A stretch of 64,000 nucleotides of DNA. Source: an uncultured Gammaproteobacteria bacterium (GTDB lineage: Bacteria > Patescibacteriota > Microgenomatia > UBA8517). The position numbers and the translations under genes are program-made. The stretch is taken from positions 8,323 through 72,322 of the forward strand of contig CAYRCU010000002.1 in the NCBI GenBank assembly GCA_964422865.1, given 5' to 3'. Numbering within the stretch: position 1 is the first letter of the stretch; the number at the start of each line of letters is the position of its first letter. Of the stretch, positions 6,592 through 60,592 are shown one piece after another. A model generated the notes under the pieces. It had not been told where the DNA came from, did not search any database, and saw only the letters and a list, made by a program, of their open reading frames with translations.

Positions 6592-7433
6592 TGGATATTA
6601 AAGAGCTTCGGATTACTGCGAATGAGGTGAGAAAGGATATTATTAGAATGCTGCTTGCGGCCGGGAGCGGACACAGTGCGGGTTCTTTGGGACTTGCCGA
6701 TATATTTGTTGCTCTTTATTTTGAAATTATGAACATTGATCCTCAGAAGCCGGATTGGGAGAGGCGAGACAGACTTTTTCTTTCTTGCGGACATGTTGCA
6801 CCCGTGATGTATGCCACCATGGCGCGCAGGGGATATTTTCCGATAAGTGAACTTAAAACTCTTAGGAAACTGGGGAGCAGACTTCAGGGTCACCCTGAGA
6901 GAGTAAAGCTTTTGGGGTTGGAGAGCACTTCGGGGCCTTTGGGAGAGGGTTTGGCGCAAGCTTCGGGATATGCGATAGCTTCTAAAATGGATGGCCGGCG
7001 ATATAGAATTTATTGCGTGACGAGTGATGGAGAGCACCAGGAGGGAAATCACTGGGAGGCCGTGATGTTTGCGGGGAAGTATCGCTTGTCTAATTTGACG
7101 TTATTTGTGGACAGGAATTTTATTCAGATTAGCGGGAACACGGAGGAGGTTATGCCCCTTTCGCCTTTGGATGAAAAATACAGGGCTTTCGGGTGGAACA
7201 CGGTGGTGATTAATGGACATGACTTTGAGGAAATATTAAGAGCGGTGGAAGAGGCGCGGGATGAATATGACAGGCCAACTGTAATTATTGCGAAGACTAT
7301 TCCCGGGAAGGGAGTTAGTTTTATGGAGGGGAGAAGTGAGTGGCATGGGAAGCCTCCAGACAAAAAAGAGTCAGAGATTGCCTTGAAAGAGCTTGCACAG
7401 ATCAAAAGGGAGATTGAAAAAGATGATAAATGA
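6591..7433 (+). CDS. tkt: transketolase, N-terminal (TPP pyrophosphate-binding) subunit
   Basis: GSGHSAGSLGLADIFVALYF and HVAP motifs; split two-gene transketolase arrangement. Confidence 0.8.
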   Translation: MDIKELRITANEVRKDIIRMLLAAGSGHSAGSLGLADIFVALYFEIMNIDPQKPDWERRDRLFLSCGHVAPVMYATMARRGYFPISELKTLRKLGSRLQGHPERVKLLGLESTSGPLGEGLAQASGYAIASKMDGRRYRIYCVTSDGEHQEGNHWEAVMFAGKYRLSNLTLFVDRNFIQISGNTEEVMPLSPLDEKYRAFGWNTVVINGHDFEEILRAVEEARDEYDRPTVIIAKTIPGKGVSFMEGRSEWHGKPPDKKESEIALKELAQIKREIEKDDK

Positions 7434-24463: not shown

Positions 24464-26785
24464 ATGGATATATTGGAACTGGTGTTTTATTCTCTGATTA
24501 TTTTGACTTTGGCATTTATTGTTGGAGTGGGGTTAGGGTGGTTTTTTTTCAATATTTGGAAACATAGAAGGAGAGAGAAGAGGAGTTTAGATTCAGTACT
24601 TTTGGAGGTGGCGGTTCCGAGGGGGAATGAAATAAAGATCGATGCTATGGAGCAGCTTATTTCTTCTTTGTATTCGGTTAGGAAGGGTGGATGGAAAATG
24701 CGTTTTGATGCACAGCCTGTGATTAGCTTTGAGATTATTGCCAGACCTGAGGATATTCGGTTTTATGTTTGGACGTTTAGAAAGCTTAAGGATCTTGTGG
24801 AGAAGCAGATTCACGGGGCTTACCCGGATGCACAGGTGGAGGAAGTTGAGGAACAGAATGTTTTTAGTGAAGAGGGGAAGGTTGCTTATAAAGCGTTTCA
24901 GCTTAAGAAAGAGAATTTTTATCCCATTAGAACTTACAAGGAATTGCCTACCGATTCCATGGCTTCTATTACTTCGGCTTTGGCCAAAATGGGTGAAGGA
25001 GAGGCAGCAATTATTCAAGTGTTGATTTCACCTGCGGATTCTAAATGGCAGGGCGGAGGGAAAGATTTTATTTCAAGCACAAAGAAGAGTGAAAGTGATC
25101 CTGAGAAGGCGAGCTATTCGACCTCTGCGAGGAAACTTGAGGCCGTAGAGAATAAAGTAGGAAAACCCGGATTTGAAACTTCCATTAGAGTGGTTGTTGT
25201 AAGCAGCAGTGAGGAGGCTGCAAAAGTGCATCTTTCGAATATTTCAAGTGCTTTTGAACAATTTAATGGAGAGTTTAACGGATTTGGGGGGAGGAAAATC
25301 CGGAATAAAGGGGCTTTTATGGAGGAGGTTATTTACAGGTATCACCCGATTTTTAACTTTGGGGGAAACAGGGTGAGCATATTAAATGCAGAGGAGATTT
25401 CAACTGTTTTTCATTTTCCAAATAAGCTTATTACTACCCCTCATATTTTTTGGCTGAATGCGAAGACTGCTCCCGCTCCTTCTGAAATTCCCACTGAAGG
25501 GTTGTACCTTGGGCTAAGCCGCTATCGAGGAATGGAAAGGAAGGTTTATATTTCCGAAGAGGATAGGCAGAGGCATATGTATATTATCGGGAAGACGGGG
25601 ACCGGAAAGAGTGAGTTTTTGAAAGCAATGATACGACAGGATATTAATGCCGGGCACGGACTTTGTTTTATGGATCCTCATGGAGATGCTGTGGAGGACC
25701 TTTTGAATTACATTCCCCCGGAGAGGGCAGAGGATGTTATTTACTTTAGACCGGGGGATACTGCGCGTCCGATGGGACTGAATCTGTTGGAAGCTAAAAC
25801 CGAGGATCAGAAGCATTTTGTTTCCACTTCTGTTATTAACATGATGTACAAGCTTTTTGATCCTTATAAGACCGGCATTGTGGGGCCCAGGTTTGAGCAT
25901 GCTGTGAGGAATGCGATGCTTACTGTGATGAGTGAAGAGGGGACAACGTTTATTGAGGTGATGAGGATACTGACTGATTCGAAGTATGTGCAGGAGATGC
26001 TGCCTAAAGTCCAGGACCCGATTGTGAGGAGGTATTGGACGGATCAGATTGCACAAACAAGCGACTTCCATAAATCTGAGGTTCTTGATTATATAACCAG
26101 CAAGTTCGGGAGATTTGTTACCAACAAAATGGTTAGAAATATTATTGGGCAAAGCAAGAGCAGTTTCAATTTTAGAGAGGTTATGGATAACGGGAAGATA
26201 CTTCTTATTAACCTTAGCAAGGGAGACCTTGGAGAGGAGAACTCGAACTTTTTAGGTTTAATTTTGGTACCCAGAATATTGATGGCCGCTATGAGCAGGG
26301 CCGACATGCCGGAAGAACAAAGAAGGAGCTTTTATTTATATGTTGATGAGTTTCAGAATTTTGCCACTCCTGATTTTGCTCAAATATTATCCGAGGCGCG
26401 AAAGTATCGCCTAAGCTTGACGGTTGCCAATCAGTTTATAGGGCAAGTGGATGAGGAGGTTAAAAATGCTGTTTTTGGGAATGTTGGAACCTTGGTTTCT
26501 TACAGGGTGGGGGTGACGGATGCAAATTATTTGGCGCATGAGTATAGGCCTGTGTTTGAGGAGGATGATTTATTAAACATTGAGAGATATCATGTTTATA
26601 TAAAGACGACTGTAAACAATGAGCCTGTTCAGCCTTTTAGTATGGACATGACTATGGATATGGACGAGGTGAGGAAAAAGAGTAATCCGAAAGTTGCGGA
26701 AGTGATTCGGGAGATGAGCAGACTTAAGTACGGAAGGGACGCGCGATTGGTGGAGGCTGAGATTGCGAGGAGGGCGAGGTTGTAG
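24464..26785 (+). CDS. type IV secretion coupling protein-like ATPase (TraD/TrwB/VirD4 family), N-terminal TM
   Basis: IIGKTGTGKSEFL Walker A, DPHGD, FRPGD...GLNLLE, YVDEFQNF Walker B-like; resembles the TrwB GATGTGKS...DPNGD...NPxD pattern. Confidence 0.6.
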   Translation: MDILELVFYSLIILTLAFIVGVGLGWFFFNIWKHRRREKRSLDSVLLEVAVPRGNEIKIDAMEQLISSLYSVRKGGWKMRFDAQPVISFEIIARPEDIRFYVWTFRKLKDLVEKQIHGAYPDAQVEEVEEQNVFSEEGKVAYKAFQLKKENFYPIRTYKELPTDSMASITSALAKMGEGEAAIIQVLISPADSKWQGGGKDFISSTKKSESDPEKASYSTSARKLEAVENKVGKPGFETSIRVVVVSSSEEAAKVHLSNISSAFEQFNGEFNGFGGRKIRNKGAFMEEVIYRYHPIFNFGGNRVSILNAEEISTVFHFPNKLITTPHIFWLNAKTAPAPSEIPTEGLYLGLSRYRGMERKVYISEEDRQRHMYIIGKTGTGKSEFLKAMIRQDINAGHGLCFMDPHGDAVEDLLNYIPPERAEDVIYFRPGDTARPMGLNLLEAKTEDQKHFVSTSVINMMYKLFDPYKTGIVGPRFEHAVRNAMLTVMSEEGTTFIEVMRILTDSKYVQEMLPKVQDPIVRRYWTDQIAQTSDFHKSEVLDYITSKFGRFVTNKMVRNIIGQSKSSFNFREVMDNGKILLINLSKGDLGEENSNFLGLILVPRILMAAMSRADMPEEQRRSFYLYVDEFQNFATPDFAQILSEARKYRLSLTVANQFIGQVDEEVKNAVFGNVGTLVSYRVGVTDANYLAHEYRPVFEEDDLLNIERYHVYIKTTVNNEPVQPFSMDMTMDMDEVRKKSNPKVAEVIREMSRLKYGRDARLVEAEIARRARL

Positions 26786-26815: not shown

Positions 26816-26888
26816 GGAGCCGTAACTCAGTGGTTAGAGTGCCAATCTTATAAGTTGGAAGTCGATGGTTCGAATCCATCCGGCTCCA
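26816..26888 (+). tRNA. tRNA-Ile (anticodon TAT)
   Basis: 73 nt cloverleaf: acceptor GGAGCCG/CGGCTCC, D stem ACTC/GAGT, anticodon stem CCAAT/GTTGG with loop CTTATAA, T arm GATGG-TTCGAAT-CCATC. Confidence 0.75.
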
Positions 26889-27180
26889 CAAAACAGTTTC
26901 GCCGTACGTCTTCGGAACGCATTGAAAAGAACTTCGTGTTGTGCATGGCGAATCCATCCGGCTCCACAAAACAGTTCCGCCGTACGTCTTCGGAACGCTT
27001 TGAAAGGAAAGAAGTTTATGCATGGCGAATCCATCCGGCTCCACAAAACAGTTTCGCCGTACGTCTTCGGAACGCATTGAAAAGAACTTCGTGTTGTGCA
27101 TGGCGAATCCATCCGGCTCCACAAAACAGTTCCGCCGTATGTCTAAAGGAACGCATTGGAAGGAAGTTTGGGAGTTTGTT
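26871..27180. repeat. 4 tandem units (~78 bp) that each begin with the 3' end of the tRNA-Ile(TAT) gene
   Basis: GAATCCATCCGGCTCCACAAAACAGTTYCGCCGTACGTCTTCGGAACGC... starts at 26871, 26949, 27026 and 27104; the first unit is the tRNA 3' end itself. Confidence 0.85.
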
Positions 27181-27182
27181 AA

Positions 27183-28046
27183 TTAGAGTTCTTCGAGCAC
27201 CTGTTTTTTGCCGGGTTCTTTTATTTGTGCAAGTTCAAGATAGCGCTCTGTGGTCGAGAGGCGTTTGTGACCCGCGGCTTGAGAGATTGTTACAAGGTCA
27301 ACTCCGCGCTTTAAGTTTTCTATGATGAACGTGTTTCTGAGATCGTTGACTGAATAGCCCGGGATTTCCGCTTTTTGCATGTAGCGATCGATTGCGGCTC
27401 TGATGTTTCTTACTGCCAGGGGATGTCCGTTTTTGCTTATAAACAGGTATTCTGATTGAGTGTTTGAACGGGATCTGATGTAGGTTTCGATGGCTTCTTT
27501 GGCCGGTTGGTTGAGGAAGATTTTCCGCTCAGGTTGGGTGGCGTGGGCTTCGATGAAAATTTCTCCCTTCTTGATGTTTTTGAGTTTTAGGTTTGCAACT
27601 TCTGATATTCTGAGGCCGGTCTGGAGAATGATTTCAACTATTGCTGCCATTCTGGGGTCTGTACGAACGACGTCTCTTAGGGCTCTATATTCGATTTGGG
27701 AGAGGAATTTGGGTGCAGTGTTTTCGATTTTGGGGTGTGAAACGTCTTTTGAATGGTCGAACTGGATTACTCCCTGATCTTTGGCCCATCTAAAAAAGGT
27801 TTTGACGGCATTTAATTTTCTTGAGACTGATTTGGGAGTATATTTTTGTGCAAGAAGGGTGTCGCGAAAGGTTTCGAGATCTTTCTGTGTTATATCGGAA
27901 ACCACGCTTTTTGAAGTTTTTGCGAGATGTTGAGTTAGTTGTTCTAAATCAGATTTATAGGCTAGAATGGTTGAGGGCGAGCGACCTAGCTCTTGGAGAT
28001 GAGATATGAACTTTGGTAGTAAGATTATTAACGTTTCCTGGCTCAT
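27183..28046 (-). CDS. tyrosine-type site-specific recombinase/integrase
   Basis: C-terminal catalytic region AGHKRLSTTERYLE (HxxR...Y) plus upstream R; 287 aa; stop codon abuts the tRNA-fragment repeat array. Confidence 0.8.
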   Translation of the reverse strand: MSQETLIILLPKFISHLQELGRSPSTILAYKSDLEQLTQHLAKTSKSVVSDITQKDLETFRDTLLAQKYTPKSVSRKLNAVKTFFRWAKDQGVIQFDHSKDVSHPKIENTAPKFLSQIEYRALRDVVRTDPRMAAIVEIILQTGLRISEVANLKLKNIKKGEIFIEAHATQPERKIFLNQPAKEAIETYIRSRSNTQSEYLFISKNGHPLAVRNIRAAIDRYMQKAEIPGYSVNDLRNTFIIENLKRGVDLVTISQAAGHKRLSTTERYLELAQIKEPGKKQVLEEL

Positions 28047-28523: not shown

Positions 28524-28602
28524 GTTTGAAACCTTCAATGTGGCTGGGTTCGATTTCTTGCAGTGTTTGAGCTGGGAGGTTATAATTGCTGTGTTCTTTA
28601 CG

Positions 28603-28672
28603 TGCGGGGTAGTGTACGGCTGCACGCGAGGCTCATAATCTCGCAGACCGGGTTCGATTCCCGGCTCCGCAA
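28603..28672 (+). tRNA. tRNA-Met (anticodon CAT), compact
   Basis: Acceptor TGCGGGG/CTCCGCA, D stem GTGT/GCAC, anticodon stem CGAGG/TCTCG with loop CTCATAA, T arm CCGGG-TTCGATT-CCCGG. Confidence 0.65.
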
Positions 28673-28690
28673 CACGGATAAACTAGTTGG

Positions 28691-28849
28691 GGTGAGCTTG
28701 GGTTGGGAAGCAGGAGCTTGGCCAACTGGATATTAGATTAGCCAGGGTAGCTCAGTTGGTAAGCAAAGCTTGGCCAACTGGATATTAGATTAGCCAGGGT
28801 AGCTCAGTTGGTAAGCAAAGCTTGGCCACCTGAGCAAATTGATAAGCCA
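28691..28849. repeat. tandem units made of the tRNA(CAT) 5' fragment followed by a hairpin-forming conserved motif
   Basis: Units at 28741-28792 and 28793-28849 are GCCAGGGTAGCTCAGTTGGTA + AGCAAAGCTTGGCCA(A/C)CTG...; a degenerate unit lies at 28691-28740; downstream CCAACTG is complementary to the D-loop CAGTTGG. Confidence 0.8.
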
Positions 28850-28922
28850 GCCAGGGTAGCTCAGTTGGTAGAGCACAGGATTCATAAACCTGCGGTCGCG
28901 AGTTCGATCCTCGCCCCTGGTA
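28850..28922 (+). tRNA. tRNA with anticodon CAT (Met or Ile2-lysidine type)
   Basis: GCCAGGG acceptor, TAGCTCAGTTGGTAGAGC D arm, anticodon loop TTCATAA, T arm GCGAG-TTCGATC-CTCGC, 3' CCCTGGT. Confidence 0.7.
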
Positions 28923-28927
28923 CTTTT

Positions 28928-42475: not shown

Positions 42476-42802
42476 ATGGCAGTTAGTGATAAAGGTAAAT
42501 TAGGGTTAAAGAGAGAAACAGCGGGAGCTTTGGCTTATTTGTTGGGGCCTGTTACCGGACTTTTGTTTTTGGTTGCTGAGAGTGACGAGTATGTGAGGTT
42601 TCACGCTATGCAATCAGTGGTATTTTCCGTGGCGGTTTTTGTGCTTAATACCGTTTTGACAATTTCCGTTATTTTGGCGGTTTTAGTTCCTCTTTTGGCC
42701 CTTTTTGAGTTTGCGGTGTGGCTTTTTTTGATGTATCAAGCTTCTCAGGGGAAAAAGTGGGAGATACCCTTTTTGGAAAAATTGGTGTATAAGTTTCTTT
42801 AA
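42476..42802 (+). CDS. small membrane protein (hypothetical)
   Basis: 108 aa with 2-3 TM helices. Confidence 0.35.
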   Translation: MAVSDKGKLGLKRETAGALAYLLGPVTGLLFLVAESDEYVRFHAMQSVVFSVAVFVLNTVLTISVILAVLVPLLALFEFAVWLFLMYQASQGKKWEIPFLEKLVYKFL

Positions 42803-43350
42803 TGAGGGTGATTGTGGGATTGGGAAATCCGGGAGAGGAACATGAGGGGACGCGGCATAATGTTGGTTTTTGGGTGGTTGAAAGACTTGGTGTGGTAGGG
42901 GACGCTTTATTTTCTGTTCGCAAAAAGCTGGAGAGTGAGATATTGGTGATTGGAGACCTGGTTCTTGCAAAACCTACCACTTATATGAATTCGTCGGGGA
43001 GAGCCGTTTCTAAGTTGCTGGGTTATTACAAGGTTTCTTTAGATGAGTTTTATGTGGTGCACGATGACTTGGATATAGCTTTGGGGGAATACAAAATTCA
43101 AAAGGGAAAGGGGCCGAAGGATCACAAAGGTGTGGAGTCTATTGAAGGGAATGTCGGAAGCAAGAGTTTTTGGAGAGTTAGAGTTGGAGTTGAGAACAGA
43201 GGCAAAGAAAACGGGCGCGGCCAGGTTGGGCGCGCTCACAAAATTTCTGGGAGGGATTACGTGCTTCGGAAGTTTAGTGCAAGTGAGAAAGAGAAGATTG
43301 ATAAAGTTATAGAGAAAGTTGTTGTAGATTTGAAAGCAAGACTTTTATGA
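42802..43350 (+). CDS. pth: peptidyl-tRNA hydrolase
   Basis: MRVIVGLGNPGEEHEGTRHNVGF N-terminus characteristic of Pth. Confidence 0.85.
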   Translation: MRVIVGLGNPGEEHEGTRHNVGFWVVERLGVVGDALFSVRKKLESEILVIGDLVLAKPTTYMNSSGRAVSKLLGYYKVSLDEFYVVHDDLDIALGEYKIQKGKGPKDHKGVESIEGNVGSKSFWRVRVGVENRGKENGRGQVGRAHKISGRDYVLRKFSASEKEKIDKVIEKVVVDLKARLL

Positions 43351-43634
43351 GTAAGAAGGATTTTGTTGCCATTGGTGATGTTTTGGATAATTATGATGTG
43401 GAGGAAGATAAATATATTTCCAGGGAGTTCCAGAAGTATGGGTATGATCTGGCAAAAGAGCTGGGAGATTTGAAACACAAGGCACTTTATATAAAGCTCG
43501 CTAAGGAAACACCCAGAGGTTTTTTAGAAGCTGCCAGGAATTTTGTAAAGGATGCTCAGAGGGTGAGAAGCAAACCAAGACTTTTTATGTGGAAGCTTTC
43601 AAAACTGAAAGCTGAACACACAAAAGCGAAGTGA
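43347..43634 (+). CDS. hypothetical protein whose 3' end seeds a tandem repeat
   Basis: 95 aa; C-terminus LFMWKLSKLKAEHTKAK is duplicated three times downstream. Confidence 0.35.
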   Translation: MSKKDFVAIGDVLDNYDVEEDKYISREFQKYGYDLAKELGDLKHKALYIKLAKETPRGFLEAARNFVKDAQRVRSKPRLFMWKLSKLKAEHTKAK

Positions 43635-43805
43635 TTATGTGGAAGCTTTCGCAGCTGAAAGCGAAGAAGGCTGAACACACAAAAGCGAAGTGATTATGTG
43701 GAAGCTTTCAAAACTGAAGGCTGAACACACAAGAACAGAGTGATTATGTGGAAGCTTTCAAAACTGAAAGCGGAGAAAGCGACAAACAAGGGAAGAAAGA
43801 AGAAT
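43585..43805. repeat. 4 tandem units (50-62 bp), each a mini-ORF MWKLSKLKAE... with its own ATG and TGA
   Basis: TTATGTGGAAGCTTTCAAAACTGAAAGCTGAACACACAAAAGCGAAGTGA and variants at 43585, 43635, 43694 and 43744. Confidence 0.8.
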
Positions 43806-50028: not shown

Positions 50029-50039
50029 TGAAATGTTCA

Positions 50040-50097
50040 TGCATACCCATCGTCATGCGGTGCAAGCACCTGTATTTTCAATATAGACGATGGGGCC
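50040..50097 (-). repeat. partial duplicate of the tRNA-Glu 5' end with an adjacent complementary arm
   Basis: GGCCCCATCGTCTA (tRNA nt 1-14) recurs at 50084-50097; GACGATGGG, complementary to nt 4-12, lies at about 50046-50054 (minus-strand sense). Confidence 0.6.
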
Positions 50098-51051: not shown

Positions 51052-52547
<1,496 letters not shown>

Positions 52548-52680
52548 AGGAGTGTTTGGTCGTTAAGAACGACAACAACACCCGGTTTTAAGATCACGGT
52601 TTTTCCTTAAAAACCGAATCCGCTAGACACGGCGAGAAAGGTCGCTTCTGAGTGTATCTTGAGTAATTAGACAAAAGACA

Positions 52681-52706
52681 CCCCGTCTGTTAAGGCGGGT
52701 TTTTTG
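52681..52706 (+). terminator. rho-independent terminator after the 16S gene
   Basis: CCCGTC-TGTTAA-GGCGGG hairpin followed by TTTTTTG. Confidence 0.6.
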
Positions 52707-52719
52707 TTATACTGCCCTA

Positions 52720-53742
52720 ATGGATGATACTGCCCGACCAAGAATGATGGTTGAAGAGGTTCCTTCTGTGTTTCCGCAGCAAGAAGCTCAGGGGGTGGAT
52801 GAAGTTGTTCAAAAGCTGCCTGTGGTATCTAAAAGGAGTTTTTCTTTTAGAGCATTGGTTTTTATAGTTCCGGGAGTTCTTCTTTTGGTTGCGATACTTG
52901 TTGGAATGTATTTGGCAGATATTTTTTTTGAGGGAAATGAACAAGTTGTTGTTACTTCAACCCCCTTTCCTTCTTTGATTCCTGCCACGCCTGTTGCTTC
53001 TTTGGCTCCTGTTTCAAAATTATTGCTATATGTAAATGGGGACGGGGGATTTAAGTTTAGTTATTTGGATGATGTGGAGATCTTGGAATGTGCGGGTAGA
53101 GTGGAGTTGTTTGCTAATAAGAGTGTTCAGAAAACTTGTGAAGGAATGGGGGTTGTGTCGGTAATTTATGATGAGGATCAGTTTGAGTCAATTCAAGGGT
53201 TTGAGACAAGTGGGAAGGAGTTGGGGGAGAGAAAGTTGTTGGTGGTTTTGAGGGATGAGAGATATAGAAATGTTTATCAGAAGGTGGTGTTGAGTCTTAA
53301 GGCTTTAGTTGTTGATACTTCGGACTGGAGCTTGTATGAGAACGCTGTTGGAAAATACAGCTTTCTTTACCCCTCGGACTGGAAAGTTACGGAGCTTGAG
53401 AGTGGGAATGTTGTAGTTCAAAAAGATGAAGAGGAAAAGGACCACTGGATTTATCTTGTTGAATATACGGGAAGTGTAAGTGATGCTGAGCTTACGGCTA
53501 GTGAGATTTCTTCTTCTACTGTTGGTTTGGCTGGTTGGGACGGAGTACCCGAAGTGAATGTTCGCAATCTTTCCGGAGGGACAGCGCAGGTGATTGAAGG
53601 AAAGCTTGGAGATGTGTGGCAAGTGTATGTGGTTTTGTGGTACAAGGACAGATTGTACCAAATGAGTTGGGTGGATACTTTGAGTAGACAGGAGAGTGCA
53701 AACTTTGAGGCGATTATATCCAGTTTTGAACTTGTGAATTAG
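52720..53742 (+). CDS. hypothetical membrane-anchored protein (lies between the 16S and 23S genes)
   Basis: 340 aa with an N-terminal TM (LVFIVPGVLLLVAILVGMYL); no family recognised. Confidence 0.35.
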   Translation: MDDTARPRMMVEEVPSVFPQQEAQGVDEVVQKLPVVSKRSFSFRALVFIVPGVLLLVAILVGMYLADIFFEGNEQVVVTSTPFPSLIPATPVASLAPVSKLLLYVNGDGGFKFSYLDDVEILECAGRVELFANKSVQKTCEGMGVVSVIYDEDQFESIQGFETSGKELGERKLLVVLRDERYRNVYQKVVLSLKALVVDTSDWSLYENAVGKYSFLYPSDWKVTELESGNVVVQKDEEEKDHWIYLVEYTGSVSDAELTASEISSSTVGLAGWDGVPEVNVRNLSGGTAQVIEGKLGDVWQVYVVLWYKDRLYQMSWVDTLSRQESANFEAIISSFELVN

Positions 53743-55877
53743 TGATCTTTTGAAGATTTTTTACCCCAACGTTCTTGAGAGATTCTTATTACTTTACTTC
53801 TGTTTTGGTTTGCTGATGTTGGAAGCGGAAGAGTGTTGGCTAAAAACGGACGACTTGTATAGCCATCTATTGTAAGCTTTGCTGCTATTTGAAAGTTGTC
53901 CAGGTTTACAAGATCCTTTTTTTCGAAAACTTCTGCAAATTCTTTATATAGCACTTCGGCGTCTTCAGCCCCTATGGCAAAGGAGATAAGAGAGCCTACG
54001 TTTCCAAGGATTGCTTTTTGCACTTCTTCTGGGATTTGGGCCATGTATTGATTGGCAAGCATTAGGTTTAGGCGGTATTTTCTTGCTTCTGAAAGAATTT
54101 TAATGAATGATTCTGTAGCGAAGTTTTGAAACTCGTCAACGTAAAGAAAGAAGTCTGTGCGCTCTTCCATGGGGAAATTGACCCTGCGCATGGCTGCTAG
54201 TTGAAATTTTGTAATGAGAACTGCTCCCAGGAGTGCTGCGTTATCTTCACCGAGACGACCTTGAGAGAGATTTGCCAGGAAGATTTTTTGATTATTCATT
54301 ATGTCATCGAAATGAATTGTGCTTTTAGGGCTTCCGATGATACGACGAATTAGGGGGGAGGTGACAAATTGTCCAACTTTGTTTTGAATAGGGGAAATGG
54401 CTTCTTTTTGGAGTCGGTCCGGCATTTTTTCATATTCTTGCTTCCAAAAGTGAATGAGACTTTGATCTTTGACTTGTTCGAGGGCCCTTGCTCTGTAGCG
54501 GGTATTTGCAAGAAGTTTTAGAACATCTTGCAGGGTTGCTCCGTTAATGTGGGTGAGTGTTAAAAACGAGTTTCTGAGAATGTATTCCATACGAGCTGAC
54601 CAAACATTGGCCCAGATTTTTGTGAATACTGCCATGAGTCCGGAGACAACTAGCTCTGCTTCTTCTTGATTGGTGACTTCCAAGGGATTAATGACGATGG
54701 GTGACTGCCGATCTGAGGGATTAAAATAGATGGTGTCGTTTATTCTGTGACTTGGAATGTAGTTTAAGAGATCTTCACAAAGGTCGCCGTGAGGGTCAAT
54801 TACACCAAGACCTCGGCTTTTTTTTATGTCGTCGATACACATGTTTGCGATGAGTGTGGATTTCCCTGTGCCGGTTTTTCCCACGACCCAAATATGGCGC
54901 CTTCGATCATTGTTTTTTATTCCAAAGATTGTGTCATGGTTTTTGAATTGGGTGCGTGCAAAGAAGTTTACCAAAGCTTTTTCTTCAGTTGTTTTGTCGG
55001 TTGCGATTGGAAGGTTATCGGGAGCCTCGGAAAGGACGGAAGTCCCCCAGGCGATGGAGGCGGTTTTTACTTTTTCGCTGGGGAGGTGCCAGAGAGTAGC
55101 GAGCTCCATGATGTTTAGGATTTGTTTGTCGGTAACAGTTCTTTCAAGTAATGCTTTTTGAGACTTTGATTTTGATTCCAACAGGCCTCTTTTTTTAGTT
55201 ACAAAGCTGTTTCCGTCGGATCGAGTGAATACTCCAAGAGCAGATGAAAGTTCCGTAAGGACCCTTTTGTTGTTTGAGGCGATGCGAAGGGAAACCAAAA
55301 AACCTGGGTAAGAAATTTTTTCTTTTATAATGGAAGCGTCCGGATGTGGGGAGTAAGTTCCATCCTCATTTTTTGTGCCGTGGTCCGCGTAACTTTGACC
55401 TGTGGATTGCCATTTGGTGCTTGTAGCCTCAAGGGCTAATTGGATTATTGTTATTTCGGTGGGGTTACCTTTGGTGAGAATTGTGAGAAGGCTTGAGAGA
55501 GGATCGATATCGGTGAAATTTGTATAAGTAGCCAGAGGATAGTAATTACCTCTTTTTAGAGTTAATTCTTTGATATAGAGCGGGGACTCGCTTTTTAGGG
55601 GATCTTGGGTTGGCTCTATTATTACAAGAGGGTATGATGATCGGATTTGAGCCTCTATAAATGGCAGTAGTTCAGTGTTACAGGTTATTTGAAAGTGGAT
55701 TTGTTGGTTAATAAGGGCTATTTCGAGTGCAAGAGGGGCGGCGCGCTTGCCTTTGAGACGATCCAGATTCGAGACGCTGTTTATTTGGGTAAGGGTTGCC
55801 AGAAAAGTTTGAGCAGCTTCTGGTGTAACTTCTGTGTTCCTTGGTATTTTAAGAAAAAGAGTAGTGAGGTTTTGCAT
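53739..55877 (-). CDS. type IV secretion coupling protein-like ATPase (TraD/TrwB/VirD4 family), paralog
   Basis: VVGKTGTGKSTLI, DPHGD, FNPSDRQSPIVINPLE, YVDEFQNFAT; same domain order as the 24464 gene but lacking the N-terminal TM. Confidence 0.6.
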   Translation of the reverse strand: MQNLTTLFLKIPRNTEVTPEAAQTFLATLTQINSVSNLDRLKGKRAAPLALEIALINQQIHFQITCNTELLPFIEAQIRSSYPLVIIEPTQDPLKSESPLYIKELTLKRGNYYPLATYTNFTDIDPLSSLLTILTKGNPTEITIIQLALEATSTKWQSTGQSYADHGTKNEDGTYSPHPDASIIKEKISYPGFLVSLRIASNNKRVLTELSSALGVFTRSDGNSFVTKKRGLLESKSKSQKALLERTVTDKQILNIMELATLWHLPSEKVKTASIAWGTSVLSEAPDNLPIATDKTTEEKALVNFFARTQFKNHDTIFGIKNNDRRRHIWVVGKTGTGKSTLIANMCIDDIKKSRGLGVIDPHGDLCEDLLNYIPSHRINDTIYFNPSDRQSPIVINPLEVTNQEEAELVVSGLMAVFTKIWANVWSARMEYILRNSFLTLTHINGATLQDVLKLLANTRYRARALEQVKDQSLIHFWKQEYEKMPDRLQKEAISPIQNKVGQFVTSPLIRRIIGSPKSTIHFDDIMNNQKIFLANLSQGRLGEDNAALLGAVLITKFQLAAMRRVNFPMEERTDFFLYVDEFQNFATESFIKILSEARKYRLNLMLANQYMAQIPEEVQKAILGNVGSLISFAIGAEDAEVLYKEFAEVFEKKDLVNLDNFQIAAKLTIDGYTSRPFLANTLPLPTSANQNRSKVIRISQERWGKKSSKDH

Positions 55878-55932
55878 ATAACTATTATATAAGTATATAG
55901 GGAAGAAGTAGTTGATGTGTAGGGTTTTTGGG

Positions 55933-56006
55933 TGGGCCTGTCAGGATTCGAACCTGAGACCTCCAAATTATCAGTTTGGCGCTCTAACCAACTGAGCTAC
56001 AGGCCC
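55933..56006 (-). tRNA. tRNA-Ile (anticodon GAT)
   Basis: Reverse complement GGGCCTGTAGCTCAGTTGGTTAGAGCGCCAAACTGATAATTTGG...; loop CTGATAA; T arm TCAGG-TTCGAAT-CCTGA. Confidence 0.8.
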
Positions 56007-56213
56007 GAGTGCATAACTATTTTAACTCAAAACAATAATAAATCCAACAAAACGTGTGGTTTTATACAGATGGTTGACTGATGTGGGGTGAAAGTATATA
56101 ATTGGCATTACCTTTTTTAAGTTCGGAATAATTAATGAGAAGTAAGAGTTTAAAATTAAACACAGACCCTTTGCCTGCTTTTTGTGGGTAAAAGGGATTT
56201 AAGCTTCAAATTG

Positions 56214-56245
56214 ACCGACTTAAAAGGGTCGGTTCTTTTTATTTT
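56214..56245 (+). terminator. hairpin plus T-tract (candidate intrinsic terminator or small RNA 3' end)
   Basis: GACCGAC-TTAAAAGG-GTCGGTT followed by CTTTTTATTTT; no plus-strand CDS upstream. Confidence 0.4.
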
Positions 56246-56317
56246 GAGATGGATTGGAACTGGGCCGATAAGAACCTGGCTTTGCCAGAACCTTGACGCC
56301 CTGCTCGTTAATACTCG

Positions 56318-56432
56318 CAGGCCGTTAGCTCATCTGGTAAGCAAAGCTTGGCCAGCTGAGCTGATTGATAGATTAGGGCCGTTAGCTCATCTGGTAAGCA
56401 AAGCTTGGCCAGCTGAGCTGATTGATAGATTA
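56318..56432. repeat. 2 tandem 57-58 bp units made of the tRNA-Ala 5' fragment followed by a hairpin-forming conserved motif
   Basis: G(G)GCCGTTAGCTCATCTGGTA + AGCAAAGCTTGGCCAGCTGAGCTGATTGATAGATTA, twice; CCAGCTGAGC is nearly complementary to the D-arm GCTCATCTGG. Confidence 0.8.
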
Positions 56433-56505
56433 GGGCCGTTAGCTCATCTGGTAGAGCGTCCGGTTTGCATCCGGGAGGTGGCCGGTTCGAGTCCGGCACG
56501 GTCCA
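56433..56505 (+). tRNA. tRNA-Ala (anticodon TGC)
   Basis: GGGCCGT acceptor with G3:U70; D arm TAGCTCATCTGGTAGAGC; anticodon loop TTTGCAT; T arm GCCGG-TTCGAGT-CCGGC. Confidence 0.8.
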
Positions 56506-57215
56506 CTCGCGAGGCTCGTTGCCCGTTTGACTCGAGGAGCGCGGAGAACAAAGGACCTTTCGGTACTATGCACGGCGAGTCCGGCACGGTCCACAAAGCA
56601 ATTTGCTTTTGACTTTTGAATATCATAATTGATTGATGGTTTTTAAAAGTCAGTAGCAAAAAAGTGAGATTGTTCTTTAACATCTGAAGAGAATTTAGGT
56701 CGAAAGTCTTTACAACGCAGACAGTGGATGCCTTGGTCTAAGTTACCGAAGAAGGACGTACAAGGCCACGATAGTCGTCGGGGAGCTGCCAAGAAGCTTT
56801 GATCCGGCGGTGTCCGAATGGGGAAACCCACCCCGCTTTGGCGGGGTACTTGCAGCCCAAATTTTTTGATTTATCAGAAATATTAAGTTGCAAGGGGGAA
56901 CCAGGGGAACTGAAACATCTAAGTACCCTGAGGAAAAGAAATTAAATAAACGCCTTTGGCGTAAGATTGCCTGAGTAGCGGCGAGCGAAACGGCAAGAGC
57001 CCAAACTTTGACCTTTGCCTTCGGGTGAAGGACAGAGGGTTGTAGGATCCTAATATGGGACTTTTAACGGTAGTAGAACAGCATGGAAATGTTGGCCATA
57101 GAAGGTGATAGCCCTGTATACGAAACTGAAAAAAGCCCTAAGGAATTCCTGAGTACCACGGTCAAAATCTGTGGGAATCTGGGGGAACCATCCTCCAAGG
57201 CTAAATATAACTTAG

Positions 57216-57261
<46 letters not shown>

Positions 57262-58740
57262 GGGAGGGGAGTGAAATAGTAACTGAAACTGTTTGCGGAC
57301 AAACCGAGAGAGCCTGTGCTTGCATGGGTGATCTCGTGCCTATTGAAGAATGAACCGGCGAGTTGTCGTATGCTGCCAGCTTAAGTCAGTTAAATGACCG
57401 AGGCGTAGCGAAAGCGAGTTTGAAAGAGCGAAGAAAGCCTTGTGCTTTCATAAGTAGCATGCGGCAGACCCGAAACCAGGTGATCTAACCATGAGCAGGG
57501 TGAGTCCTATCGAAAGATGGGAGGAGGCCCGAACCGGTGTAAGTTACAATTTGCTCGGATGACTTGTGGTTAGCGGTAATATGCCAAACGAACCTGGAGA
57601 TAGCTGGTTCTCCCCGAAAGGTCTATAGGGACCGCGGCACGGAAAGGAACACTGATGGTAGAGCTACTGGATGGGGCAGCGAGAGGTAACTCAAGTTGTC
57701 TCAACCAAACTCCGAATAGCAGTGTGGGACGTGCTAGACAGCCGCATGGGGCTAAGCTCATGCGACGAAAGGGAAACAACCCAGACTCTCAGATAAGGCC
57801 TCTAAATCTTGACTAAGTTTTAAAGGAAGTTTTTTTCCACAGACAGCTAGGAGGTTGGCTTAGAAGCAGCCATCCTTTAAAGAAAGCGTAACAGCTCACT
57901 AGTCGACTTGCCTGCGCAAGCAGGTGGGAAGAAAGCGCCGAAGATTTATCGAGGATTAAGTCAAGTGCCGAAGCTGGAGCCCCGCCTTTGGCGGGGGGTA
58001 GGGGAGCGTTCCAAGGGCAGTGAAGTTCAACTGTAAAGTTGGATGGAGCGCTTGGAAGTGAGAATGCCGGTATGAGTAGCGTACAAGAGAAGTGAGAATC
58101 TTCTCCGCCGAATGCCCAAGGTTTCCGTCGGAAGGTTCGTCCGCGACGGGTTAGTCGGCTCCTAAGGCGAGGCCATATGGCGTAGTCGATGGATAGCTGG
58201 TTAAAATTCCAGCACTTTGGTAAATTCGCTTTTAACTGAGGACTGACGGAGTGAAAGAGCTTGTGGCAATTATTGAATTTTGTTGCAGAAGCCTCACCCA
58301 TCTGGTGGGAAAATCCGCCAGAGACGCAAATTATTGCGAATGGTTGAGGTGGTGCTAGTCCTGCGAGAGCAGGGCGACATGAGCTAATAGCTTCCCAGAA
58401 AAGGTTCGCAGTGAGAATTTATCAAAGCCGTACCGCAAACCGACACAGGTGGGCTGGTAGAGAATACTAAGGCGAGCGAGAGAAGGAGGGTTAAGGAACT
58501 CGGCAAATTAGCTGGACGTAAGTTCGCAAGATGTCCTGCCTCCAAATAGTAATATTGGAGGTCGCAGCTAACGATTGCTGGTCGACTGTTTATCAAAAAC
58601 ACAGGTCCGTGCAAACTCGAAAGAGGAAGTATACGGGCTGACGCTTGCCCAGTGCCGGTAAGTTAAGGGGATGGGTGATTTGCCTTCGGGCACTTTGCTT
58701 TGAACCGAAGCTCCGGTAAACGGCAGCAGTAACTATGAAC

Positions 58741-59065
58741 AAGTTGTAGTTGAGAGTGGCCTCCGCTTGAGGCGGAGTATTCGTCACTCCGTTGATTGAT
58801 AACAACGAAAAATTTGGCTATATGCTGGAACATCCCGCAAGGTCATTGGTAGGCCACCAGTTTGGCAACAAACTGGTTAACTCCTGAAAATCCAATGAAT
58901 AGGGACAATCAGCAGGAAAGACCCCGCTTAGCGGGGAATCCTCAGAGACTATACGCCAAACCTCGCAATAGTGAGGATGATATAGTCCGATCCTTATGGA
59001 GACATAGGGAGTCCTGCGGAAACGACGGGACCACCCCGCCAATGCGGGGGAGTAACAAAAAAGAA
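58741..59065 (+). mobile_element. ORF-less intron in the 23S gene (E. coli-equivalent site about 1917, inferred by flank alignment)
   Basis: Exon sequence AACTATGAAC | about 325 nt insert | TCTACGGTAGCGAAGTTCC interrupts the conserved AACTATAACGGTCCTAAGGTAGCGAAATTCC region. Confidence 0.5.
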
Positions 59066-59742
59066 CTGTTCTACGGTAGCGAAGTTCCTTGTCACTTAAT
59101 TGGTGACCCGCACGAAAAGCGTAACGAGCTAGCAACTGTCTTGACCCTTCACTCGGCGAAATTGCGTTGGCTGTGAAGACGCGGCCTACTTCCACCAGGA
59201 CAAAAAGACCCCGTGAAGCTTTACTGTAGTCTGGCATTGATTTGTGCAATGCAATTGTTTAGTGTAGGAGGGACCTCGCCTTTGGCGAGGGCCAATGAAA
59301 CACCTCCCTTTGAATTGTGTCAAATCTTACTTAAGGGCCTTTCAAACAGGTCTGAGGAAAGTGTCAGATGGGCAGTTTATCTGGGGCGGATCCCTGCTAA
59401 AAGGTAACGCAGGGGCACAAAGGTTGGCTTACCACGGATGGAAATCGTGGGGAAAGTGTAAAGGCATAAGCCAGCTTGACTGCGAGAGTGACAACTCGAG
59501 CAGGTGCGAAAGCAGGTCTTAGTGATCCTCCGATGCGCCATGGGTGTGCACGGAGCTTAACGGATAAAAGCTACTCCGGGGATAACAGAGTAGTCGCGCC
59601 CGAGAGTCCATATCGACGGCGCGGTTCGCTACCTCGATGTCGGCTCAGGATATCCTGGGGCTGGAGAAGGTCCCAAGGGTTGGTCTGTTCGCCCATTAAA
59701 ATCCTACGTGAGCTGGGTTCAGAACGTCGCGAGACAGTTGAC

Positions 59743-60592
59743 GCTATAAGACATTTTAGCGTGACATTTGAGCTGTCTCATCCTATCGATGTTCACTGGG
59801 ACATGAGCCCGAAATATATCTTTTTGTCATAATACCGAGATGGATACTCGGAGTAATATAGGAATAAAAAATCTGGCTATATGCTAGGAAGTCTCGTCAA
59901 ACAGTAGAGTACTAGTATAATATTTATGTACTAGTAAAAATCTCTGCTCTGAGATTACTAGCAGGAAAGACTAGTTTTTTATGTGTATGTCTAATTTAAT
60001 TTCTGATGACTACATTGCTGGGTTTGTTGATGGTGAGGGGATGTTTTATATTGGTATTGTCAAATCAACCGGTTCAAGTAGAAACAAGAGCGGTTGGCAG
60101 GTAATTTACTTTTTTAAGGTATCCCAAAACCCAAACGGTAAATTTGTTCTTGATCAAATCAAGAAACGTTTGCAGTGCGGGTATATCAAAGAAAACAGCA
60201 AATCGGATCCCACAGACAAGTCACTTGCATTTGTGGTTCGTGACTTGCCAAGCATCAGAGATAAAGTTGTTACTTTTTTTCAAGATAAGTTGGTTGTTAA
60301 GAGAAAAACTTTACGGAAATTTAGTAAAGTAATCGAATTGGTGGACCAAGGAAAACATCTTGAGAAAGATGGGATGAAACAAATATTAGACATTGCGTAT
60401 TCTATGAATACCAAAAAAAGAAAGGTTTCGAAGGATAAAATTTTGTCATCCTTTTAAAAAACTAGAATCCCCACAGGCCATACGCCAGACCCCGCCAGAG
60501 GCGGGGAAGACATGGTCGGACCCCCATGGCGACATGGGGAGCTAGCGAGAAAAAGAAATCAGCTAGCCCAAGAATTACTTGGTAACAATAAT
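59743..60592 (+). mobile_element. group I-type intron in the 23S gene encoding a LAGLIDADG homing endonuclease
   Basis: Insert after GAGACAGTT; exon resumes at GTCGGACTCTATCC...AGTACGAGAGGACC; shares the motif AAAATYTGGCTATATGCTRGAA with the first intron. Confidence 0.65.
59981..60457 (+). CDS. LAGLIDADG homing endonuclease (single-motif family)
   Basis: LISDDYIAGFVDGEGMFYIGI LAGLIDADG motif; 158 aa; located inside the 23S intron. Confidence 0.8.
   Translation: MCMSNLISDDYIAGFVDGEGMFYIGIVKSTGSSRNKSGWQVIYFFKVSQNPNGKFVLDQIKKRLQCGYIKENSKSDPTDKSLAFVVRDLPSIRDKVVTFFQDKLVVKRKTLRKFSKVIELVDQGKHLEKDGMKQILDIAYSMNTKKRKVSKDKILSSF

Follow-up and report, generated by a model that had tools for sequence, protein, structure and literature searches.

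The short tandem units that sit directly upstream of two tRNA genes in the 64-kb stretch of DNA analyzed here (the window) are best read as copies of a miniature, non-autonomous hairpin repeat element that targets GGTA and is specific to Microgenomates/Woesebacteria-type CPR bacteria, a reading to which we assign a probability of roughly 0.55. Because a restored, intact gene was combined with a hairpin core placed after GGTA, the units look like a new, very small mobile element, and not like an RNA device or a phage att scar. They represent an unreported repeat family in a large class of uncultured bacteria, with an unusually sharp target in the D-loop GGTA of many tRNAs. The core of the element is GGTA|AGCAAAGCTTGGCC, and the core of the family is the 18-mer GGTAAGCAAAGCTTGGCC. 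In the window, AGCAAAGCTTGGCC occurred exactly four times, always inside the tRNA-Met or tRNA-Ala units; when up to two mismatches were allowed, shuffled sequences gave a mean of 0.72 matches, and none of 100 shuffles reached four.

The target gene of the first array is an intact tRNA-Met(CAT) on the + strand (28850..28923; ARAGORN and the Rfam tRNA model, 65.9 bits), and the insertion point is its D-loop, at GGTA|GAGC. Three + strand units precede it, and the original prediction had given their coordinates and sequences, like those of the Ala units, correctly. The 57-bp unit nearest the tRNA (28793..28849; sequence, motif search and fold) consists of tRNA-Met positions 1–21 (28793–28813), the core (28814–28827), and ACCTGAGC followed by AAATTGATAAGCCA (28828–28849). 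The 52-bp unit (28741..28792), identified by the same three means, has positions 1–21 at 28741–28761, the core AGCAAAGCTTGGCC at 28762–28775, and an inverted copy AACTG with the filler GATATTAGATTA at 28776–28792; its hairpin folded at −16.1 kcal/mol. The oldest unit (28689..28740) is degenerate and was recognized from its sequence and from its ortholog, the single unit of locus L054. It is made up of the leader-like GGGGTGAGCTT, the psi-tRNA fragment GGGTTGGGA, a decayed core AGCAGGAGCTTGGCC, and then AACTGGATATTAGATTA; the L054 unit, GGGGTAAGTAG-GCCAGGGTA-AGCAAAGCTTGGCC, is better preserved. Adenine mutagenesis of the DGR type was rejected for the degenerate unit, where by inspection the changes were not A-specific. 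Further upstream is another tRNA(CAT) (28603..28673, + strand; sequence and tRNA calls), with TATAAT at 28581–28586. The promoter/terminator scan called neither signal between this gene (28603–28673) and the array, and the transcript through the Met units probably starts at the upstream tRNA(CAT). The array is followed by its tRNA and then by trpS.

The second array lies on the + strand before an intact tRNA-Ala(TGC), its target gene (56433..56506; ARAGORN and the Rfam tRNA model), just 5' of the 23S rRNA gene. Unit 1 (56319..56375; sequence, motif search and fold) contains psi-tRNA-Ala positions 1–21, with A rather than G at position 1, the core at 56340–56353, and then AGCTGAGC and TGATTGATAGATTA; its hairpin folded at −22.9 kcal/mol (z = −2.7). 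Unit 2 (56376..56432; core at 56397–56410) matches unit 1 at every position of the 57 bp (TRF: period 57, 100% matches), which suggests a recent tandem duplication. The 14-mer that had been reported as shared by the two loci is indeed common to the Met and Ala units, but the sharing is wider: the entire non-tRNA part of 36 nt is homologous over its full length between the Ala unit and the proximal Met unit, at about 80% identity. A like-built unit on the − strand upstream of tRNA-Glu (50029..50097; sequence and fold) holds a different insert. It comprises a psi 5' fragment GGCCCCATCGTCTA (50097–50084), a 29-nt insert, an inverted arm GACGATGGG (50054–50046) and filler, with the tRNA at 50028. 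The insert motif CAGGTGCTTGCACC was absent from all fetched loci, and this unit is tied to the Met and Ala units by architecture only. The window also contains 3'-fragment repeats, at tRNA-Ile(TAT) and tRNA-Ala.

Each Met and Ala unit folded as an interrupted hairpin of ~15 bp, GCUCAGUUGGUAAGC-AAA-GCUUgGCCAaCUGAGC, with an AAA triloop and a bulged G. The 14-nt motif had been described as a loop; folding placed it in the stem, with the triloop at the tip. Single-unit z-scores were modest (−1.7 to −2.7). The sequence GCAAAGCTTGGC is a near-palindrome, and a stem subfamily with compensatory changes, AAGG-AAA-CCTT, was found in two genomes. No Rfam family matched the units at gathering score; the window matched only tRNA, rRNA and group I intron models.

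Searching related CPR genomes for the motif near tRNAs, as the original prediction had proposed, revealed a family spread through a bacterial class. The 18-mer scan covered one genome per species and yielded 48 loci, 43 of them in Woesebacteria/Microgenomates/Patescibacteria-type contigs; the remaining five look like chance matches. Exact-core loci numbered 1–4 per genome, and the core was always placed directly 3' of (G)GTA on the sense strand. A tRNA D-loop was the site of 26 of the 43 loci, again directly 3' of GGTA, and these tRNAs represented 17 anticodons and 11 amino acids. Within the window, two of the three D-loop GGTA sites were occupied compared with none of the 328 other GGTA sites (hypergeometric p = 5.5e-5, hand calculation). 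The GGTA of tRNA D-loops (GGTA|GAGC) is by far the preferred site. Neither the fixed insertion point 3' of GGTA nor the lineage-wide family had been part of the original prediction. Viral contigs gave no match to the core, and on this ground a phage origin of the core was rejected. In the literature on CPR repeats and on partial duplications of tRNAs we found nothing relevant, and the sole occurrence of the 14-mer was in an unrelated human promoter study.

The usual layout at a tRNA was promoter, tRNA positions 1–21, core, an inverted copy of the bases preceding GGTA, filler, and intact tRNA. Because the inverted copy is followed by a direct copy of tRNA positions 1 to ~21, a complete tRNA gene stands downstream. 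This restoring duplication measured 19–29 nt at tRNAs, and 3–7 nt were repeated at other sites. The right end differed from locus to locus; with duplication length dependent on context and no constant second end, a DDE-type MITE, for which terminal inverted repeats and a target duplication of fixed length are expected, was rejected. Plain insertion without a restoring copy does happen, as indicated by tRNA-Thr(GGT) in locus L005, where four 22-nt units lie in the D-loop and split the tRNA by 88 nt. Such a split tRNA, like the decoy 5' fragments, could be miscalled in tRNA annotation. Elsewhere the hit gene was rebuilt in place, which shows how a streamlined genome can absorb insertions in a gene that is essential and present only once.

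In the mechanism that we favor, a 3' end would arise at GGTA| while the sense strand is transiently single-stranded, and the core would be attached to it. Highly transcribed tRNA genes, open promoter complexes and the lagging-strand template would expose such DNA. The core would then snap into its own hairpin (GGTAAGC / GCTTgGCC), and its 3' end would prime fold-back synthesis on the same strand, giving the inverted copy; return of the synthesis to the normal upstream template would give the direct repeat. At an essential single-copy tRNA, the only survivors would be events that re-create positions 1–21. Later slippage between direct repeats could cause units to multiply, shrink or vanish. The units would be transcribed in the pre-tRNA 5' leader and removed by RNase P, as passengers and not parts of the tRNA, and the mobilizing enzyme would not be encoded in the 64-kb window. 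Among three candidates put forward originally, a fold-back replication product is the nearest to this mechanism.

Several observations count against the favored reading. Exact cores are few per genome, unlike those of REPs. The restoring duplication is about 20 nt at tRNAs but 3–7 nt elsewhere; a short-copy process with long copies as its rare tail would not be expected to leave 60% of all copies at tRNA sites. Of 23 loci, about 22 had a duplication starting at tRNA +1 (offset 0–4 nt), and a start almost exactly there is not predicted by the model. The psi-copy was mostly 100% identical to its tRNA while the adjacent inverted copy was imperfect. Lastly, the 18-mer was identical between genomes whose TrpRS are only about 70% identical, which could instead reflect selection for function.

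The restoring copy of positions 1–21 might alternatively have been copied from the mature tRNA, through RNA-templated repair or retro-insertion of the essential gene, a possibility we consider fairly unlikely. A break at GGTA| in the D-loop would leave a right-hand DNA end that anneals to the plentiful tRNA; extended as far as the tRNA 5' end, it would then be joined to the hairpin-bearing left end. This would explain why the duplication starts at +1 in those 22 or so of 23 loci, and why it does so for unrelated inserts as well: it likewise begins at +1 in the window's tRNA-Glu unit and in a tRNA-Arg (L010) into which a GIY-YIG-like ORF is inserted. A stem copied from the target, together with a duplication ending at the mature tRNA 5' end, points to a mechanism outside known transposition chemistry. 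Should an RNA template or a new enzyme acting on single-stranded DNA be involved, the mechanism would interest a wide field and might be turned into a tool.

We compared the 3' arms with their own loci across the family. Complementarity to the own locus averaged 5.5 of 8 positions, versus 3.4 ± 0.28 when permuted (0 of 5000 as high). Paired cells amounted to 87%, versus 75.7 ± 1.2% in shuffles, and 59 cells were changed on both sides, versus 21 in shuffles (0 of 500 as high). We concluded that, family-wide, the local tRNA either templates the 3' arm or is matched by it. The earlier statement that the units are not a simple insertion scar is supported. The related claim that stems co-vary with their target tRNA is strong family-wide by permutations and shuffles, but in the window it rests on one position. 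There, the Ala 3' arm AGCTGAGC had been taken as complementary to the D-arm of tRNA-Ala; GCTCAGCT, rather than Ala's own GCTCATCT, is its perfect complement. The arm fits another tRNA's D-loop better than its own, a further point against the favored reading. An inverted copy of the full positions 1–21 was clear in L008, L043, L038 and L018 (12 of 16–17 matches), and the family-wide test on the distal 8 nt was marginal (p ~0.04).

Two sources were rejected for the filler. As a general rule it is not decayed tRNA body: the own tRNA aligned no better than other tRNAs or shuffles, and of 22 tests only that on the window's proximal Met unit stood out (p ~0.02). True exceptions are L017 and L031, where the upstream pseudo-tRNA runs on past the insertion. 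Nor is it drawn from nearby DNA, given that 9-mer matches within each 8-kb locus were at chance level. Linkers at sites outside tRNAs were palindromic, with a mean arm of 3.0 nt versus 0.45 nt in shuffled linkers (0 of 5000 reached this value).

A direct-inverted-direct layout is also expected from two template switches, and the D-arm might have been duplicated by fold-back or template switching independently at each locus, with no mobile element at all. The right core half GCTTGGCC resembles the reverse complement of GGTAGAGC (5/8), and the window's tRNA-Glu has the same layout around an unrelated insert, as such local accidents would allow. However, an identical core of 14–18 nt, with the same derived D-arm differences, recurs across dozens of genomes, at 17 different tRNAs and also outside tRNAs, and unlinked loci share linkers. 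The shared core largely refutes this explanation, which is highly improbable and might hold at most for how the first copy arose. Quasipalindrome template switching and inverted triplication are known to leave direct-inverted-direct arrangements centered on a short inverted repeat, in which junctions are imperfect and filler bases occur. Those events are sporadic and local, whereas the present core is found repeatedly, across many genes and genomes, next to one defined tetranucleotide.

Comparison of strains showed differences in array content. In a 99%-identical strain (L049), the degenerate Met unit was identical, a 53-bp AACTGGATATTAGAATTA-type unit replaced the 57-bp proximal unit, and the array differed from the window's in unit number and type. 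In the comparison with close relatives that the original prediction had proposed, L054 had a single unit only, and two relatives had none, the syntenic sites in L050-52 and L053 being empty. Because arrays differ at 99% protein identity, they could be used to type Microgenomates at strain level. One genome carried the same 29-nt unit, with the linker GAGTCAGACTC, at two loci (L026 and L047), and a linker consensus, AGTCAAAGCCCT, recurred across genomes. Old units were decayed, which is expected if units are passengers. An assembly artifact, the alternative raised at the outset, is contradicted by the recurrence of the architecture in dozens of independent assemblies and by a near-identical strain that shares the degenerate unit.

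Outside tRNAs, copies faced the downstream gene. They carried small palindromic linkers and lay, in sense orientation, either at extended −10 boxes or in frame at the 5' ends of ORFs. In-frame copies were found at the N-termini of TrmD, RsmH and MurG, and in at least five loci TTGGCC preceded TAAAAT by exactly 17 nt. These in-frame, −10-spaced and sense-facing copies reveal a selection filter.

These sites bear on whether the decoy 5' fragment and hairpin are a selected part of the pre-tRNA, a functional leader that could act in folding, in RNase P processing, or in tRNA output, with the decoy competing against the true acceptor 5' strand. Two-sided changes preserve the hairpin, at the outer stem and, for one subfamily, at the inner stem; the core is identical in distant genomes, and the psi-copy is usually still identical to the tRNA. 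Moreover, minimum free energy folds of leader plus tRNA paired the 3' acceptor strand with the upstream decoy (z = −3.1 and −3.6). Still, we find a functional leader distinctly unlikely: the core also occurs upstream of −10 boxes, where that promoter would not transcribe it, and in frame in ORFs; close relatives are without units, whose number and type vary between 99%-identical strains; old units have decayed; no Rfam family matches; and templated synthesis alone can give the pairing, without selection. The structured RNA or processing element suggested originally is thus neither shown nor needed.

The −10 spacing raises a promoter or operator module, in which the core would combine a binding site with a −35 element, TTGGCC, and would make up, together with GGTAAAAT, a strong promoter of the extended −10 type. 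On this view the copies at tRNAs would be promoter duplicates. TTGGCC (or TTGCCA) is exactly 17 nt from TAAAAT in L006, L017, L023, L035, L044 and L046, the element lies 10–60 nt upstream of ORFs in sense orientation, and GCAAAGCTTGGC has the near-palindromic form of a dimer-binding site. Against such a module, which we regard as very unlikely, TTGGCC is 14–30 nt from tRNA +1, mostly too short for a start upstream of +1, and the array-internal linkers of 12 nt have the wrong spacing. The promoter scan of the window's arrays was negative, and a promoter inside the tRNA units was rejected on spacing and scan together. The module would also leave the inverted and direct tRNA copies unexplained, and its geometry more likely reflects a survival filter, or later co-option, acting at −10 sites.

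We searched about 50 ORFs of the 64-kb window against Pfam and found no transposase, reverse transcriptase or Cas1-like gene; of note were only a Xer-like recombinase, two VirD4-like ATPases and a LAGLIDADG ORF. Neither a RAYT (Y1 HUH) gene among these ORFs nor an autonomous master copy of the element was found. The missing transposase, reverse transcriptase and Cas1-like genes, the missing master copy and the lack of matches in viral contigs weigh against the favored reading. The tyrosine (Xer-like) recombinase gene (27183–28046; Pfam) lies 650 bp upstream of the Met array, and the units had been suggested to be remnant att sites of a tRNA-targeting integrative element, here one moved by a tyrosine integrase. 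Besides this gene, the status of tRNA genes as classic integration sites and the 3'-fragment repeats at the window's tRNA-Ile and tRNA-Ala are compatible with that proposal. Yet the repeats are 5' fragments, positions 1–21, that end in the D-loop, and integrases at tRNAs reportedly retain the 3' part of the tRNA (Williams, in 2002). At an att remnant, sequence identity would span from a crossover in the anticodon loop or T loop as far as the tRNA's 3' end, with element DNA and an integrase enclosed by the repeats. The "cargo" between repeats is only 31–36 bp, 17 tRNAs would require 17 matching attP sites, and the recombinase is syntenic with DivIC at the same position in a relative without units. 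Remnant att sites therefore have very little chance of being correct.

Short tandem units with a constant and a variable part also recall guide-RNA or antitoxin-type arrays (TIGR, CRISPR-like, or type III antitoxin repeats), and TIGR systems do occur in CPR bacteria (PMC12045711). The probability of such an array is next to negligible. The units have no box C/D motifs and no 36-nt dual-spacer period, no Tas, Cas or toxin gene is nearby, the next gene being trpS, and the variable part fits the neighboring tRNA, not foreign DNA. A TIGR-Tas array was rejected because the features described in PMC12045711 are missing from the units and the neighboring genes; type III toxin-antitoxin repeats, which precede a terminator and a gene for a toxin endoribonuclease, were rejected with the tRNA and trpS downstream and no terminator called.

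The proposed element shares traits with several known systems. REP, BIME and REPIN sequences, which RAYT (Y1 HUH) transposases move, are non-autonomous, short imperfect palindromes of ~20–35 nt with an extrahelical base, dispersed and sometimes tandem; in the REP family a fixed tetranucleotide lies beside the hairpin, and some copies have been co-opted for gene expression (PMC3116915; PMC6006769). By folds and pair counts, the window's units resemble those of REP/REPIN-RAYT systems as short imperfect palindromes that form hairpins. REPs and REPINs, however, occur in hundreds of copies, typically as extragenic inverted doublets and at operon 3' ends, whereas the present element occurs in few copies, as direct tandems, and inside tRNA genes, −10 boxes and ORF starts, with an outer stem copied from the target and a long restoring duplication at tRNAs. 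Members of IS200/IS605 (IS608, ISDra2) and their miniatures likewise insert 3' of a fixed 4–5-nt target in one orientation, and use single-stranded DNA and hairpin recognition (PMC6006769). They produce no target duplication, in contrast to 19–29 nt at tRNAs and 3–7 nt elsewhere for the present element, and they have no inverted flank copy and two different subterminal hairpins, whereas here one hairpin contains the target.

Elhai et al. reportedly described, in 2008, cyanobacterial "very small mobile repeated elements" of 21–27 nt that form or extend hairpins and are nested in conserved sequences. These small dispersed repeats differ from the present element in sequence and lineage, and we know of neither D-loop targeting nor a restoring gene duplication among them. 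Rickettsia palindromic elements, of 100–150 bp, are tolerated in frame in protein genes and within RNA genes. They share palindromy and this tolerance with the present element but differ in size and in duplication; to our knowledge, they never duplicate a fragment of the target gene. In E. coli, the 178-bp repeat of tyrT carries the last 19 nt of tRNA-Tyr. Such att-site and tyrT repeats are partial tRNA copies beside an intact gene, like the 3'-type repeats at the window's tRNA-Ile(TAT) and tRNA-Ala, but they are 3' fragments located downstream, whereas the present units are 5' fragments located upstream, each with a hairpin core.

Eight tRNA genes were found in the window, with ARAGORN and Rfam in agreement. 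Three head-to-tail units preceded the intact tRNA(CAT) (28850–28923): a degenerate unit (28689–28740), a 52 bp unit (28741–28792), and a proximal 57 bp unit (28793–28849). Two 57 bp units, 100% identical to one another, lay upstream of tRNA-Ala(TGC) (56433–56506). Each clean unit comprised the downstream tRNA's first 21 nt, up to the D-loop GGTA, followed by the core, AGCAAAGCTTGGCC, and then by 17–22 nt whose start approximated the reverse complement of the bases before GGTA. The window held exactly four copies of this 14-mer, all of them in these units; allowing two mismatches added none, and shuffles averaged 0.72 hits. The original prediction made the 14-mer a loop; folding instead placed it in the stem of one extended hairpin with interruptions, GCUCAGUUGGUAAGC-AAA-GCUUgGCCAaCUGAGC, which has AAA at its tip and a G that bulges out. 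That the 14-mer is shared by the Met and Ala loci was confirmed, but the likeness was not limited to it, as homology extended over all 36 nt of non-tRNA sequence in the Ala unit and the proximal Met unit. Decay in the Met array ran from the distal-most unit (most decayed) to the proximal unit (freshest), as expected from repeated hits on the intact copy. D-loop GGTA sites in the window were occupied in two of three cases, compared with 0 of 328 other GGTA sites. A TATAAT at 28581–28586, upstream of the first tRNA(CAT), suggests that the Met units probably lie within a two-tRNA transcript. A promoter scan called none inside the window's arrays.

A scan for GGTAAGCAAAGCTTGGCC, covering a single genome of each species, gave 48 loci, where by our own estimate about 17 hits were possible by chance. 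Five loci were in GC-rich, unrelated genomes and lacked the surrounding structure. The other 43 were on contigs titled Woesebacteria, Microgenomates/Microgenomatus or Patescibacteria, together with some AT-rich MAGs otherwise titled, whose tRNA genes were similar to those of the Patescibacteria loci. Twelve records carried the labels ‘uncultured Gammaproteobacteria’ or ‘Gordonia’ (L004, L006, L013, L014, L018, L020, L027, L033, L038, L040, L043, L045); because they combine a Microgenomates-type repeat with tRNA genes that closely resemble those at Patescibacteria loci, these labels look wrong. The window falls in the same group as these 43 core-bearing loci: its TrpRS matched proteins named from Collierbacteria, Woesebacteria and Microgenomates at 66–72% identity.

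The core was found in three kinds of place: tRNA D-loops, upstream of genes, and in frame at ORF starts. As had been predicted for related CPR genomes, it recurred beside tRNA genes, lying directly 3′ of the D-loop GGTA on the sense strand in 26 of the 43 loci. All but three of these 26 (23/26) shared the window's layout of promoter, tRNA positions 1 to about 21, core, inverted copy, filler, and intact tRNA. The tRNA-type loci spanned 17 anticodons and 11 amino acids. Slightly diverged cores were present at four more tRNA loci, detected only through lying within fetched loci and not by the scan; one diverged form, AAGG-AAA-CCTT, had the inner stem altered on both sides and occurred in two genomes. 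Where copies lay upstream of genes, the final unit ended in GGTAAAAT, and TTGGCC (or TTGCCA) stood exactly 17 nt before TAAAAT, which is the geometry of a −35 box with an extended −10 box. The window's own tRNA-Ile promoter shows TGGTAAAAT to be a native promoter form in the window's organism. In-frame copies stood right at the ORF starts of MurG, RsmH (9 extra residues), and TrmD (MKI-[28 residues]-DILTLFPEMF). Non-tRNA copies were oriented toward the downstream gene with almost no exceptions. Array periods were 22, 29, 30 or 36 nt, a linker consensus AGTCAAAGCCCT was common to several genomes, and one 29-nt unit occurred at two loci within one genome. One conserved core that recurs at a defined position across many genes and genomes is no sporadic accident.

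The left junction was exact, ...(G)GTA|AGCAAAGC. The right side was variable but rule-bound, in that the bases after GGCC were complementary to those before the next GGTA. At tRNA loci, complementarity to the own locus averaged 5.5/8, compared with 3.4 ± 0.28 when arms were swapped among loci, a value reached in 0 of 5000 permutations. The predicted co-variation of each arm with its own tRNA was thus strong across the family; within the window it came down to one position, and the Ala arm AGCTGAGC was a perfect complement of GCTCAGCT and not of Ala's own GCTCATCT. With the alignment fixed at 34 columns, pairing held in 87% of cells versus 75.7 ± 1.2% in shuffles and ≤43% in slid controls, and both-side changes were seen in 59 cells versus 21 in shuffles. 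The inverted copy is therefore templated locally. It spanned most of positions 1–21 in L008, L043, L038 and L018, and the family-wide test of this extent was marginal. Non-tRNA linkers (9–16 nt) formed small palindromes with a mean arm of 3.0 nt versus 0.45 nt shuffled (reached in 0/5000). Comparison with the surrounding locus DNA ruled out that the filler is a copy of nearby DNA, and in general it was not a decayed tRNA body.

The length of the direct repeat varied with context, from 3–7 nt at ordinary sites, (AT)G(G)TA, to 19–29 nt at tRNA sites, where it started at tRNA +1 and the direct copy restored the tRNA. Its offset from +1 was 0 in about 10 loci and 1–4 nt in 12; a single locus had 8 nt. 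The struck copy in L017 and L031 was a longer pseudo-tRNA, followed by an intact tRNA. In L005 (341–430), four 22-nt units (88 nt) split the D-loop of a tRNA-Thr(GGT) that had no restoring copy and was a perfect tRNA once the units were removed; plain insertion thus exists. The split gene would be a pseudogene, its isoacceptor being dispensable, or else its RNA must undergo some form of processing.

Relatives differed in the presence of units and in array composition at the Met locus, so that the anticipated empty syntenic sites were found in some of them. In L049 (TrpRS 99% identical) the degenerate unit was the same as the window's and the second unit differed, the tRNA-proximal unit being of a 53-bp type versus the window's 57-bp type. 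Searching with the 3′ portion of the window's tRNA(CAT) recovered L053 and L054. In the former the D-loop GGTA was intact and no unit was present; the latter locus had a promoter and a terminator of its own and a single unit, orthologous to the window's degenerate unit, with a 12-nt deletion between two GGTAs in the pseudo-copy. A 72% relative (L050–52) kept the synteny of DivIC, tRNA-Met, trpS and ftsH and had no unit, and its D-loop lacked GGTA|G.

We propose that the core would be joined to a 3′ end lying at GGTA| where the sense strand is single-stranded, would fold on itself, and would prime fold-back synthesis of the inverted copy, after which synthesis back on the normal template upstream would yield the direct copy. 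The contexts of the core look like what selection would let pass: the events retained would be only those rebuilding positions 1–21 in essential tRNAs or the −35/−10 spacing in promoters, and only in-frame ones in ORFs. Slippage between direct repeats would then multiply units (the Ala pair), trim them (L054), or remove them, and units would be carried in the 5′ leader and cut away by RNase P. We hold this mechanism, taken whole, at somewhat better than even odds (roughly 0.55). Fold-back does not explain the sharp tRNA +1 boundary, the strong excess of tRNA sites given the long copy required, or a perfect pseudo-copy beside an imperfect inverted copy. The same +1 boundary marks two unrelated inserts, the window's tRNA-Glu unit and a GIY-YIG-like ORF at tRNA-Arg in L010; for this reason we retain as an unlikely alternative that the restoring copy was made with mature tRNA as template. 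In predicted MFE folds of leader plus tRNA, the 3′ acceptor strand paired with the decoy 5′ strand, and there may be some room for an effect of the units on tRNA maturation.

In its working the repeat is closest to hairpin repeats of the REP type and to single-strand insertion as in IS200/IS605, with which it shares a fixed tetranucleotide, a single orientation, and a hairpin as the means of recognition. It departs from REP in copy number and doublet structure and from IS200/IS605 in that its target is duplicated. The repeat has its direct-inverted-direct layout in common with template-switch rearrangements. We would file the repeat as a new form of small palindromic mobile repeat with an unusual target and a gene-restoring outcome. 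Rfam gave no match at the units. TIGR arrays of CPR bacteria require box C/D motifs, paired spacers and a Tas gene (PMC12045711), all absent at the units. The core was not found in viral contigs or in the searchable literature. Genes flanking the units were ordinary chromosomal ones, and no HUH or DDE transposase, reverse transcriptase or Cas1 was among the window's genes. The sole recombinase near the units was Xer-like (27183–28046, minus strand), and it adjoins DivIC also in a relative without units.

Other repeats and genes were noted as well. After tRNA-Ile with the rare anticodon TAT, a 78-bp tandem repeat (26816–27165, 3.8 copies) ended 18 bp from the Xer-like recombinase gene; each copy opened with the final 18 nt of that tRNA, CGAATCCATCCGGCTCCA, and ...GTGCATGG came before them. 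tRNA-Ala had its 3′-terminal 19 nt repeated 88 bp downstream (56488–56594). This second family, of 3′ type, was also seen in related genomes (L006, L028, L037, L048) as an intact tRNA, a 45–70-nt spacer ending (T)TGTGCA(C/T)GG, and a partial tRNA copy that starts at CGAATCC in the T-loop and continues through the 3′ end; the tyrT repeat of E. coli and att sites in the T-loop are similar to it. Upstream of tRNA-Glu (50029–50097, minus), a 14-nt pseudo 5′ fragment and a 9-nt inverted arm had the layout of the core units around an unrelated insert, which was present in none of the fetched loci. The L010 tRNA-Arg(TCT) (about 6850–7125) was preceded by a copy of its own positions 1–26, starting exactly at +1, and an insert of roughly 250 nt encoding a small GIY-YIG-like protein (MSYYMYILKNEQKDRFYIGSTNNLRRRLKEH...; family assigned by eye). 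A tandem repeat downstream of pth (42802–43350) was AAG/GAA-rich (43585–43777; 50–59 bp, about 3.5 copies), possibly coding for a repetitive peptide rich in lysine and glutamate. The rRNA operon (51057–60457) was unusual, with 4 kb between 16S and 23S holding ORFs and an antisense tRNA-Ile(GAT), a group I intron in the 23S (58727–59009), and a LAGLIDADG endonuclease ORF (59981–60457). Two VirD4/TraG-like coupling-protein genes (24464–26785 and 53739–55877) both adjoined repeat-bearing tRNA genes, namely tRNA-Ile(TAT) and the tRNA-Ile(GAT)/tRNA-Ala region.
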